Shown here: piece after piece, positions 46,291-48,138 of the stretch
Layout of the letters: every line of letters starts with the position of its first letter
Numbering within the stretch: the stretch's first letter is position 1
Assembly (NCBI GenBank): GCA_036391835.1
Contig: DASVZC010000093.1
Span: forward strand, 8,802-72,801
Source of the DNA: Ktedonobacterales bacterium
GTDB taxonomy: Bacteria > Chloroflexota > Ktedonobacteria > Ktedonobacterales > JADMIN01
Length of the DNA stretch: 64,000 bases
Direction of reading: 5' to 3'
The notes under the pieces: model-generated
Database searches by the model: none
Told to the model about the DNA's origin: nothing
What the model saw: only the letters and a program-made list of their open reading frames with translations
Made by a program: the position numbers and the translations under genes

Positions 46291-48138
46291 TCAATGGCTG
46301 TTTTGCGCGAGGAACGCGAGGAACACCTTCCGAAACTCCTCGGGCTTTTCAATGTGCGGAGAATGCCCGCAGTCCGCAACGATCACCTCGTCGTAAGCGC
46401 CACCACCATTACGATAGCGATCGAGAACTGCCCGCATTTGTGAGACCATGGGTTGCGATGGGAAGACGTCGGCGCCCGGCCACCCAGGAACGTAGCCTAG
46501 TGAGCCCAGTGTGCCAAAGTCGAGGAACGAGGCATCAGACACGATTTGGTCATCCGCGCCACGCACCCATAGCACCGGCGCTGTCTGTTGCGTCGCTCCG
46601 AATGAGCTCAGATCACAGTGCCCCGCAGCGATGGCATTGTTCACTCCGCGCATACCGGGCTTTACGCTTGGCCAATTTTCCGATACGGACATATCGCCAG
46701 GGTAGTTGTCCTCGCCAGTCGCCATTTTGAGCATCTCGACGACATACAGGTCTTCACGCTCAGGCGACACCTTGAATGGTGGTTTGAAGTAGAAGGCATT
46801 CATGACAGCACGCGGAGAGTTGGGTGAATCCGATCCCGCATCCTTGTCACGTAACCTCTGGACGTAGTCAGGATTTGCCGTGCCACCGCCTGAGCCTGCT
46901 CCATCTGGCCAACAGAGTGCGCCTGCGCTATCTTTCGTGCCACCAAAGCCAAAGGGAGACATGGGATCGATCATCGTCAGTGACGCGACTTCGCCTGGAT
47001 GATCGGTCATGTACTGCATCGCCACGCCCCCACCCATCGACCAGCCGACGAGATGAGGCCGGCGCTGACCCGTGATCCCGAGCGCCTGGAACAGCACGTG
47101 GAGGTCGTCACTGAAGTCGCGTACTCCGCGGGTGGCGTCTACTGGCTTCGTCTCGCTGTCGCCAAAACCTCGCAAGTCTGGAGCGACACCCCAGTAGTGG
47201 GCCGGAAGCGCAAGCAATGTGTCCTCGAAGAAGCGTGCGGAGGACACATTGCCGTGGATGAACACCACAGGTATTCCCGATTCATCGCCTGACGTCAACA
47301 CATTCGTTCGTAAACGCGCAGTGTCGACCGTACGTGCTTGAATACCATCCAGCAACGGTACGCTCATGCTGACCTCCATTCGGTTCCGGTCTGACTCCGT
47401 TGGAGCCGGGCGCGACTGCGTTTCACTTTCGTCGATTCCTAAATACAGACTTCGGACGGACGAATTCTGCGTCAGGTCTTCCGTCGAACCGTGCAGCGCG
47501 ACCGTTCCCCCCTGAAGCACATAGGCGGCGGAAACGATGCTCAACGCCATCCGGGCATTCTGCTCGACCAGAACCACCGTCAGGCCCTGTTCACGATTCA
47601 GACGAGCGATGACCTCGAAAACAGTATCGACAACTGAGGGCGCCAGGCCTAGCGACGGTTCATCCAGTAGTAGCACACTTGGTCGAGACATGAGCGCACG
47701 CGATATGGAGAGCATTTGCCCTTCGCCGCCGCTCAGGCTGGCTGCTGGCGCATCGAGCCGCTGGCGTAGTCGCGGAAAGTAGGTTAGCGCCTGTTCGATG
47801 TCCGCGTCGAGGGAGTTTCGATCACGCCGAGTGAATGCGCCCATAATGAGGTTTTCGCGAACAGTAAGAGAGTTGAATAGTTCGCGACCCTCTGGCGCTA
47901 ATGCGAGTCCACCGCGTACGCGCTGCTCCGGAGGCAAACGGTCGAGTCGGCGACCGTCGAGGCTGATGGAGCCTGCGCGCGTGCGGATAAGTCCCGTTAG
48001 CGTGCGCATCAGTGTGGTTTTGCCTGCGCCGTTCGCACCCAGGACTGCGACCGCATCGCCCTTGTTGATCTCTAGCGAGACATCGTGCAGCACTTCGAGC
48101 GGTCCATACCCCGCGCGCAACCCGCTGACGCTAAGCAT
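46291..48138 (-). CDS. LivF-type ABC transporter ATPase fused in-frame to an alpha/beta hydrolase
   Basis: The N-terminal domain has GANGAGKT, LSGGEGQM and LLLDEPSLGLAP and ends in SLYLG. A linker then leads into a hydrolase with FIHGNVSSARFF, VGWSMGG and DCGHSPH. An internal GGAGG plus ATG (47367) sits at the junction. The start overlaps the livG stop by 8 nt. Confidence 0.8.
   Translation of the reverse strand: MLSVSGLRAGYGPLEVLHDVSLEINKGDAVAVLGANGAGKTTLMRTLTGLIRTRAGSISLDGRRLDRLPPEQRVRGGLALAPEGRELFNSLTVRENLIMGAFTRRDRNSLDADIEQALTYFPRLRQRLDAPAASLSGGEGQMLSISRALMSRPSVLLLDEPSLGLAPSVVDTVFEVIARLNREQGLTVVLVEQNARMALSIVSAAYVLQGGTVALHGSTEDLTQNSSVRSLYLGIDESETQSRPAPTESDRNRMEVSMSVPLLDGIQARTVDTARLRTNVLTSGDESGIPVVFIHGNVSSARFFEDTLLALPAHYWGVAPDLRGFGDSETKPVDATRGVRDFSDDLHVLFQALGITGQRRPHLVGWSMGGGVAMQYMTDHPGEVASLTMIDPMSPFGFGGTKDSAGALCWPDGAGSGGGTANPDYVQRLRDKDAGSDSPNSPRAVMNAFYFKPPFKVSPEREDLYVVEMLKMATGEDNYPGDMSVSENWPSVKPGMRGVNNAIAAGHCDLSSFGATQQTAPVLWVRGADDQIVSDASFLDFGTLGSLGYVPGWPGADVFPSQPMVSQMRAVLDRYRNGGGAYDEVIVADCGHSPHIEKPEEFRKVFLAFLAQNSH

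Follow-up and report, generated by a model that had tools for sequence, protein, structure and literature searches.

The LivF-hydrolase fusion gene

The stretch of DNA analyzed here, which we refer to as the window, comprises 64,000 nucleotides from a Ktedonobacterales bacterium (Chloroflexota), and our subject is a minus-strand open reading frame (ORF) within it that joins a LivF-type ATP-binding cassette (ABC) ATPase, through a linker, to an alpha/beta-hydrolase (Table 1). The frame, read from 48138 to 46291, consists of 615 codons and is free of stops, and its translation holds the sequences GANGAGKT, LSGGEGQM, LLLDEPSLGLAP and SLYLG, the linker IDESETQSRPAPTESDRNRMEVS, and the sequences HGNVSSARFF, GWSMGG and DCGHSPH. 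These are the motifs that were quoted in the initial annotation of this DNA, which had proposed that a whole LivF-type ATPase and a whole hydrolase are fused in frame; all of them were found, and the proposal stands. When the fusion was compared with Pfam models, ABC_tran matched residues 17-162 with 107 bits, and Abhydrolase_1 and Abhydrolase_6 matched residues 290-603 with 75 and 73 bits, respectively. The ORF caller opens the frame farther upstream, at a TTG at 48225. Translation more likely begins at the ATG at 48138, since an AGGAGG lies 7 nucleotides (nt) upstream of it and the reading frame that it opens overlaps the LivG stop codon by 8 nt.

The ATPase half matches the NCBIfam LivF model NF008626 with 219.8 bits, residues 1-234 being placed on model positions 5-236 of 237. 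Since the model is aligned almost to its last position, the ATPase is complete at 'LYLG', in agreement with the earlier reading that it runs whole to SLYLG. Its Walker A (GANGAGKT), signature (LSGGEGQM), Walker B (LLLDEPS) and switch (VEQN) motifs are invariant across 30 aligned sequences. The score against NF008626 is below the cut-off of 441 bits for equivalog-level identity with E. coli LivF, and the score of 214 bits against the UrtE equivalog model TIGR03410 is below its cut-off of 286, suggesting that branched-chain amino acids or urea are probably not the substrate. The partner set of a HAAT-type transporter, namely a LivG-type ATPase, two BPD_transp_2 permeases and a Peripla_BP_6 protein, is present in the window, with synteny in at least 10 related loci. 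By its architecture, the transporter is a HAAT-family binding-protein-dependent ABC importer.

Given that the window comes from a metagenome-assembled genome (MAG), a stop codon or frameshift in the linker might have been missed through an error of sequencing or assembly, and a related long-read contig (L081) does show a probable frameshift error in the adjoining short-chain dehydrogenase/reductase (SDR) gene when it is compared with L082. A search for the two-domain architecture across genomes had been recommended in the initial annotation. Among 5.8 billion proteins searched, we observed approximately 29 protein clusters that carry both domains (615-658 amino acids (aa), 62-97% identity), and all of the named fused homologs are from Ktedonobacterales MAGs. 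In the alignment of the fused homologs, both domains are strongly conserved and the linker is in frame throughout. Relatives at 97%, 89% and 87% identity, which come from other samples, have an in-frame linker of equal length with scattered substitutions, approximately 25 others of these clusters, from NCBI, ENA, JGI and Logan assemblies, are fused too, and one fused protein (P0018) is identical in two independent assemblies (L081 and L082). The window protein itself is already public as NCBI HEX8982962.1, named 'MAG TPA: alpha/beta fold hydrolase [Ktedonobacterales bacterium]', on a MAG contig of 81 kb, and relatives carry the JGI label 'ABC-type branched-chain amino acid transport ATPase / pimeloyl-ACP methyl ester carboxylesterase'. 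The homologs with in-frame linkers of the same length, the occurrence of P0018 in two assemblies and the public protein exclude an assembly artifact for practical purposes, and we consider its probability to be vanishingly small. Thus, the LivF-hydrolase fusion is real and natural and, as far as we have seen, it is confined among the sequences searched to one Ktedonobacterales clade.

The dehydrogenase that follows the P0018 fusion is called as ORFs of 105 aa and 147 aa in L081 (L081:10964-11733) and as an intact protein of 256 aa in L082 (L082:2517-3287). The split dehydrogenase ORFs in L081 are probably the product of an assembly frameshift. Transposase genes lie just downstream of the dehydrogenase in L081.

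Table 1. Features of the fusion gene and of its surroundings in the window
Feature	Coordinates	Strand	Basis
Fusion ORF, 615 aa + stop: LivF-type ABC ATPase, linker, alpha/beta-hydrolase	46291..48138	-	Translation, Pfam, homologs
LivF-type nucleotide-binding domain, aa 1-234; Walker A, signature, Walker B and VEQN switch invariant	47437..48138	-	NF008626, alignment
Linker, aa 235-257 (23 aa)	47368..47436	-	Alignment, AF2, DNA alignments
Internal ribosome-binding site and start: GGAGG 47377-47373, 5-nt spacer, ATG 47367-47365	47365..47377	-	Junction DNA, homologous starts
Alpha/beta-hydrolase domain, aa 258-615 (358 aa), lid insertion of ~120 aa	46294..47367	-	Alignments, AF2, PDB matches
LivG-type ATPase; stop overlaps fusion start by 8 nt	48131..48934	-	ABC_tran + BCA_ABC_TP_C; NF008449, 234 bits
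LivM-type permease, exact start uncertain	48927..50156	-	BPD_transp_2
LivH-type permease	50098..51063	-	BPD_transp_2
Solute-binding protein, Peripla_BP_6, LivJ-like, divergent	51296..52567	+	Pfam
HYD2, free paralog of the fused hydrolase, 412 aa, 49% identity	52700..53938	+	Pfam, alignment
FabH-like (KAS III fold) enzyme	53871..54989	+	Synteny; L004 homolog above NF005308 cut-off
AMP-binding acyl-CoA ligase	54965..56560	+	Synteny
12-nt tandem repeat (TGCGAAGCTTGA), 7.5 copies, 98% match	46193..46282	.	Repeat search
3-Hydroxybutyrate dehydrogenase (SDR), immediately downstream of fusion	45403..46173	-	TIGR01963, NF009093
TetR-family regulator, start probably internal	44445..45332	-	TetR_N, synteny

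Fused and split relatives

The same pair of genes also occurs in a split form. In L084, a 498-kb JGI contig, the synteny is identical and there are two genes, which encode a 262-aa LivF and a 362-aa hydrolase, with the ATG of the latter overlapping the LivF TGA by 4 nt as ATGA. Among other split loci, L171 has an ATGA overlap as well, L172 has a 22-nt gap between the two genes, and L176 has an in-frame TAG 3 nt before the ATG. It had been suggested that the fusion might represent a recent loss of a stop codon after the YLG motif and that orthologs be inspected for a stop at that position. This is not what the comparison reveals, since the LivF genes of the split loci have no stop at YLG either and instead run through a hypervariable tail up to the hydrolase start. 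Standalone LivFs with tails of 10-45 aa that resemble the fused linkers make up approximately 20 clusters at 69-79% identity, and plain 235-aa LivFs were found only at 71% identity or below. It is the far end of an already existing LivF tail that is labile, not YLG.

DNA alignments of two sister pairs reveal how small the change at that position can be. Where split L176 reads ...GGAGAAAAG TAG GAT ATG, fused L175 reads ...GGAGAAAAG CAG GCT ATG, and split L084 differs from fused L174 by a 2-nt indel in the tail. In a neighbor-joining tree of the hydrolase domain, drawn without support values, the fused forms are mixed among split and transporter-less forms. Because the sister pairs differ by such tiny changes and the forms are interspersed in the tree, we conclude that the fused and split states have toggled several times. 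The numbers of fused and split clusters do not constitute a quantitative ratio, and a search with the LivF half alone returned none of the 29 fused proteins (68-97% identical) except the truncated 408-aa P0050. When contigs were scanned with the alignment of the full fusion, for which ABC motifs served as patterns, most of the hits were ordinary LivF genes, and only L001-L005 and L021 were informative.

These comparisons show that the fusion arose from two adjacent, translationally coupled genes. A switch between a sense and a stop codon immediately ahead of the ATG, or a short indel within the tail, joins or parts the two frames and has done so repeatedly, and the hydrolase's own ribosome-binding site and start codon live on inside the fused gene. 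In a Thermogemmatispora MAG (L173), LivF has a 31-aa tail that holds the Shine-Dalgarno (SD) sequence of the next gene, even though no hydrolase comes after it.

The linker and the internal start site

The linker is approximately 15-55 aa long among homologs and is hypervariable in both length and sequence, with almost no conservation, and its homolog in the split relatives is the tail at the C-terminus of LivF. It is predicted to be disordered, with AlphaFold2 (AF2) confidence values (pLDDT) below 50 for residues 235-259. The AF2 model of the full-length fusion has a mediocre pLDDT of 71, and no interface between the domains was read from it.

At the junction between linker and hydrolase, the initial annotation had pointed to a GGAGG situated 6 nt upstream of an ATG; the GGAGG and the ATG at 47367 are real, but the spacer between them is 5 nt. 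The hydrolase of split loci starts at an ATG that is homologous to this internal one, and ATG 47367 is the ancestral start of the hydrolase gene. We observed an in-frame ATG or GTG with an SD-like motif 4-12 nt upstream in all 12 of the fused junctions with DNA: GGAGGT in the window; AAGGAG, AGGAGG or GAGGAG in L083, L086, L087 and L088; AGGAG in L090 and L175; AAGGGAG in L001, L002, L081 and L089; and GAGGTG in L174. An exact SD 5-mer or longer is present in six of the 10 fused loci that were formally scored, compared with 13 of 313 (4%) other in-frame ATG/GTG codons in the same genes, and the strength of the internal SD matches that of genuine starts within the window. Since the SD and the start codon are kept at every one of these junctions, well over background, independent initiation of a free 39-kDa hydrolase is plausible, as had been allowed for at the outset. 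As judged from the sequence, the locus probably makes both the 68-kDa LivF-hydrolase and the free enzyme. Weighing against this, the SD could equally have been retained because the gene often passes through the split state.

In the 90% cluster of the window protein, three 358-aa members start exactly at the internal ATG, on contigs of approximately 1.2 kb; here, the gene finder took the internal ATG as the start where the upstream sequence was missing. Phase variation and programmed frameshifting were considered and set aside: neither a homopolymer nor a slippery run occurs in the window linker, and ordinary substitutions and indels are what distinguish fused from split lineages.

The hydrolase domain

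The catalytic residues of the hydrolase are invariant (Ser367 in GWSMGG, Asp530 in GADDQ after beta-7, and His592 in GHSPH), and the Ser-Asp-His triad and the nucleophile elbow are unchanged in more than 100 sequences. With its G-x-S-x-G elbow, acid after beta-7, histidine after beta-8 and core fold, the domain belongs to the alpha/beta-hydrolases. Its AF2 model, when the domain is modeled alone, has a pLDDT of 91.4 and the expected strand order, and a Foldseek search with this model gave a probability of 1.0 to many alpha/beta-hydrolases. The domain is thus predicted to be a catalytically intact cytoplasmic serine esterase.

With respect to its specificity, the best family match is to NF050089, the intracellular short-chain-length polyhydroxyalkanoate (PHA) depolymerase model, with 97.3 bits against a membership cut-off of 300 and with residues 32-144 placed on model positions 19-126 of 288. 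The top PDB sequence match obtained with phmmer is PhaZ of Bacillus thuringiensis (8ynv, residues 34-142), and the best Foldseek match is also PhaZ (8ynv/8ynw). The profile of 3-hydroxybutyrate-oligomer hydrolase (3HBOH), which we take to be PF10605, was not matched in the Pfam scan of the fusion (E<=0.001), which returned only ABC_tran, Abhydrolase_1, Abhydrolase_6, Hydrolase_4 and AAA_21.

The gene for HYD2, the free paralog of the fused hydrolase, adjoins the binding-protein gene, and the same position is kept in L081 and L084. The module thus carries this enzyme twice, with one copy tethered and one free. A role for HYD2 as a secreted depolymerase was considered and not adopted; its alignment with the fused domain begins at residue 27, and no obvious signal peptide was recognized by eye, a formal prediction not having been made. 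Proteins P0073, P0075, P0082 and P0083, of approximately 630 aa, have two alpha/beta-hydrolase domains, and on a contig labeled Thermotoga (L021:7986-9274) the hydrolase is found in tandem copies. This hydrolase family also makes hydrolase-hydrolase fusions or duplications.

A conserved gene module

On the minus strand of the window, the order of genes is LivH, LivM, LivG, LivF-hydrolase, 3-hydroxybutyrate dehydrogenase and TetR, and the divergent plus-strand genes encode the binding protein, HYD2, the FabH-like enzyme and the AMP-forming acyl-CoA ligase. This module is common to fused and split loci. The dehydrogenase passes the curated cut-offs of two models (335.6 bits against 307 for TIGR01963, and 326.3 against 258 for NF009093), its orthologs in L001, L003 and L005 pass them too, and it is kept downstream in most of the related loci that we examined. 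In two Ktedonobacteraceae loci (L003 and L005) and in Thermogemmatispora (L173), the dehydrogenase comes straight after livF, with no hydrolase between. In L173, a gene of the Esterase_PHB family, that is, of poly(3-hydroxybutyrate) (PHB) depolymerases, adjoins the binding-protein gene of the transporter-dehydrogenase cluster (L173:1158-2195, minus strand, and 7001-7798, plus strand). The trio of hydrolase, dehydrogenase and TetR is paired in L093 with an MFS transporter instead of an ABC system, and L151, from a lineage at 55% identity, has the order TetR, ligase, dehydrogenase, hydrolase, ligase, FabH-like enzyme and binding protein. The succession of hydrolase or esterase, BdhA-like dehydrogenase and AMP-forming ligase mirrors the catabolic route for PHB (PMC6201568).

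The mechanically called TetR and LivM ORFs exceed their called orthologs by 45-65 aa, and the real starts are probably internal. The TetR ORF was called at 295 aa, with the helix-turn-helix at residues 88-133 and homologs of 232-247 aa, and the LivM ORF was called as 409 aa from a TTG, with called orthologs of 358-371 aa. The tandem repeat listed in Table 1 fills the 117-nt spacer from the fusion stop to the dehydrogenase start, a spacer that is approximately 15-60 nt long in relatives (16 nt in L174). Farther along the window, positions 56894-63696 of the minus strand encode a PaaK-like ligase, an acyl-CoA dehydrogenase, an enoyl-CoA hydratase, an SDR, and a 708-aa FAD/FMN oxidoreductase that resembles 2,4-dienoyl-CoA reductase.

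Proposed import and hydrolysis of 3-hydroxybutyrate esters

From the gene context and the nearest relatives, we hold it moderately likely that the substrates of the system are 3-hydroxybutyrate esters or oligomers, which it would import and hydrolyze at the cytoplasmic face of the transporter. The module would take up small 3-hydroxybutyrate esters or oligomers that are products of PHB breakdown, the esters would be cleaved at the cytoplasmic face, and the released 3-hydroxybutyrate would be oxidized to acetoacetate. The tether would provide a 1:1 stoichiometry and place the esterase at the exit of the importer, and fusion may make covalent an association that is held non-covalently in the split forms. 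The initial annotation had also envisaged that uptake is coupled to immediate hydrolysis of the imported compound, and this is a reasonable inference, albeit one that is weakened by the split forms being about as common as the fused ones; for the same reason, the tether would be advantageous at most and not required. The fusion is probably a Rosetta-stone indicator that the importer and the esterase cooperate in scavenging the products of PHB breakdown. Taken as a whole, that is, as a labile natural fusion with two products, import and hydrolysis of 3-hydroxybutyrate esters, and an optional tether, this is the interpretation that we favor, with a confidence only a little better than even.

Several observations weigh against it. 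The likeness of the hydrolase to PhaZ is weak, at approximately 20% identity and in the catalytic core only, and in the Foldseek search PhaZ is barely ahead of aryl esterases, with lipases and an acyl-homoserine lactone (AHL) lactonase close behind. The solved structures closest to the binding protein are Leu/Ile/Val-binding proteins, with an E-value of only ~1e-16. Judging from its L004 homolog, the ligase is of a type other than acetoacetyl-CoA synthetase, the 3-hydroxybutyrate scheme does not account for what the FabH-like enzyme does, and two fused loci (L083 and L086) have no dehydrogenase downstream. Finally, that fused and split forms are both common and one mutation apart argues that the covalent link is of little selective value.

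This last point can be taken further. It may be that the fusion is real and that the frames merge and part by drift, with the tether having no consequence for uptake or catabolism and the hydrolase acting as a free cytoplasmic enzyme that is made from the internal start or freed when the linker is cut by a protease. Such a view is consistent with the interspersion of the two states in the phylogeny, with the counts of approximately 20 split and 29 fused clusters, with a linker that is hypervariable and disordered while the internal SD and start codon are kept throughout, and with the presence of LivF tails even where no hydrolase follows, as in L173. It is harder to reconcile with the persistence of the fused state across lineages that are just 62% identical, with stop-free linkers of up to approximately 55 codons, and with the observation that the split LivF ORF almost always reaches the hydrolase start, not ending at YLG. 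The reach of the split LivF ORF suggests selection for coupled translation and stoichiometry of the two proteins, and we regard pure drift as unlikely, though well short of negligible.

A second alternative keeps the same architecture and origin and changes the substrate: a different ester, lactone or amide would be imported and hydrolyzed, and the SDR, the FabH-like enzyme and the CoA ligase would pass the product towards the adjoining beta-oxidation genes. It stays alive because the FabH-like enzyme, the ligase of non-acetoacetate type and the ligand of the binding protein are not explained by 3-hydroxybutyrate. The genes for the FabH-like enzyme and for an acyl-CoA ligase of medium/long-chain type are conserved in the module, genes resembling those for acyl-CoA dehydrogenase, enoyl-CoA hydratase and dienoyl-CoA reductase lie nearby (58-64 kb), and the TetR protein weakly matches models of the FasR, FadR and ScbR type. 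The failure of the hydrolase at the PHA-depolymerase cut-off and the almost level Foldseek standing of aryl esterases, lipases and AHL lactonase point in the same direction, as do the unrelated catabolic contexts in which livF-adjacent alpha/beta-hydrolases sit in proteobacteria. Favoring 3-hydroxybutyrate, the SDR is over two 3-hydroxybutyrate dehydrogenase thresholds at every locus tested, the hydrolase matches PHB depolymerase best whether it is compared by sequence, by family model or by structure, and an Esterase_PHB gene adjoins the system in Thermogemmatispora. We therefore treat another substrate as a tentative alternative.

A more specific mechanism, to which we assign a low probability, is that the hydrolase docks on the LivF/LivG dimer, whether fused or split, and cleaves 3-hydroxybutyrate oligoesters as they leave the permease, with the internal start adding free enzyme. 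Very improbable is a purely regulatory role, in which the hydrolase domain would be a sensor of the ATPase that binds cytoplasmic product and trans-inhibits import: its C-terminal position is that of the regulatory domains in MalK, MetN and ModC, but the triad and nucleophile elbow are invariant in more than 100 sequences, the same domain stands alone in many lineages with no transporter nearby, and the long, disordered and unconserved linker is unlike that of compact regulatory domains.

Comparison with known systems

The window shares the operon grammar of HAAT importers (LivFGHMJ/UrtABCDE), and its ATPase motifs are intact. A HAAT LivF normally ends in 'YLG(G)' at approximately 235 aa, whereas the LivF of the window bears a tail and a 358-aa enzyme and scores below the LivF and UrtE cut-offs. 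With B. thuringiensis PhaZ (8ynv/8ynw; NF050089), the hydrolase shares the alpha/beta core, the G-W-S-M-G-G elbow and the HGN oxyanion region. PhaZ is approximately 300 aa long, whereas the window hydrolase has 358 aa with a lid of approximately 120 aa that is missing from PhaZ, and the N-terminal core alone aligns.

Unfused counterparts of the arrangement are found on plasmids of Variovorax paradoxus (CP063168) and Phyllobacterium (NZ_CP088274), where livF is the last gene of a HAAT operon and an alpha/beta-hydrolase gene comes directly after it, the same succession as in the window. In these two, livF and the hydrolase gene stand apart, at distances of 24 and 69 nt, the encoded hydrolases, of approximately 270 aa, are from other subfamilies, and the pathways encoded downstream, with xanthine-dehydrogenase-like and pca genes, are unlike that of the window. 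Given such unfused pairs, import followed by hydrolysis is a recurrent operon theme, of which the fusion in the window is the covalent extreme.

Accessory domains on the C-terminus of an importer ATPase are familiar from MalK, MetN, ModC and OpuAA, where they hang below the ATPase dimer and are small, non-catalytic and regulatory, with short linkers. The window likewise has a C-terminal addition, but the addition is a full enzyme on a long tether; its 358-aa domain with an intact triad and its disordered linker place it outside the MalK/MetN type. In the PCATs, which are exporters, a C39 peptidase lies N-terminal to the membrane domain and acts before transport. In both cases a hydrolytic domain is covalently attached and acts, or in the window would act, on the compound that is transported, whereas the window encodes an importer whose enzyme is on the soluble ATPase subunit and would act after transport. 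We know of no catabolic enzyme on an importer ATPase.

In an exhaustive scan of 1.84 billion representatives, there was no other LivF-hydrolase fusion among the best 150, a set with many LivG-LivF and permease-ATPase fusions and below which independent fusions to distant hydrolases could rank. Ten candidates with an N-terminal LivF-like domain and extra length were rejected, all of them being LivF-LivG tandem ATPases. In the literature that we searched, neither an ABC ATPase-esterase fusion nor a HAAT-type importer of 3-hydroxybutyrate oligomers is described. The architecture had not been recognized in the initial annotation as a described one, which holds with respect to papers and not with respect to databases, where it appears under HEX8982962.1 and the two-part JGI labels. 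The fusion is present in databases and apparently undescribed.

Implications

The locus provides a clear natural case of genes that single mutations fuse and separate again where two translationally coupled frames meet, and the old ribosome-binding site that is kept inside the fused ORF is useful for understanding the origins of multidomain proteins and for annotation. The NCBI name covers the hydrolase only and misses the transporter half. If the hydrolase were to dock on the ATPase dimer as outlined above, the result would be a vectorial hydrolysis, akin in function to group translocation, that pulls uptake forward. A catabolic enzyme would then have been shown for the first time to belong to a bacterial ABC importer as an integral subunit, and PHB oligomers would have their first defined route of uptake. 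To our knowledge, bacterial uptake of 3-hydroxybutyrate oligomers is poorly defined. The fusion predicts that a HAAT importer and a PhaZ-like esterase act together, and it thereby offers a candidate uptake route for PHB-derived esters in abundant and little-studied soil Chloroflexota.

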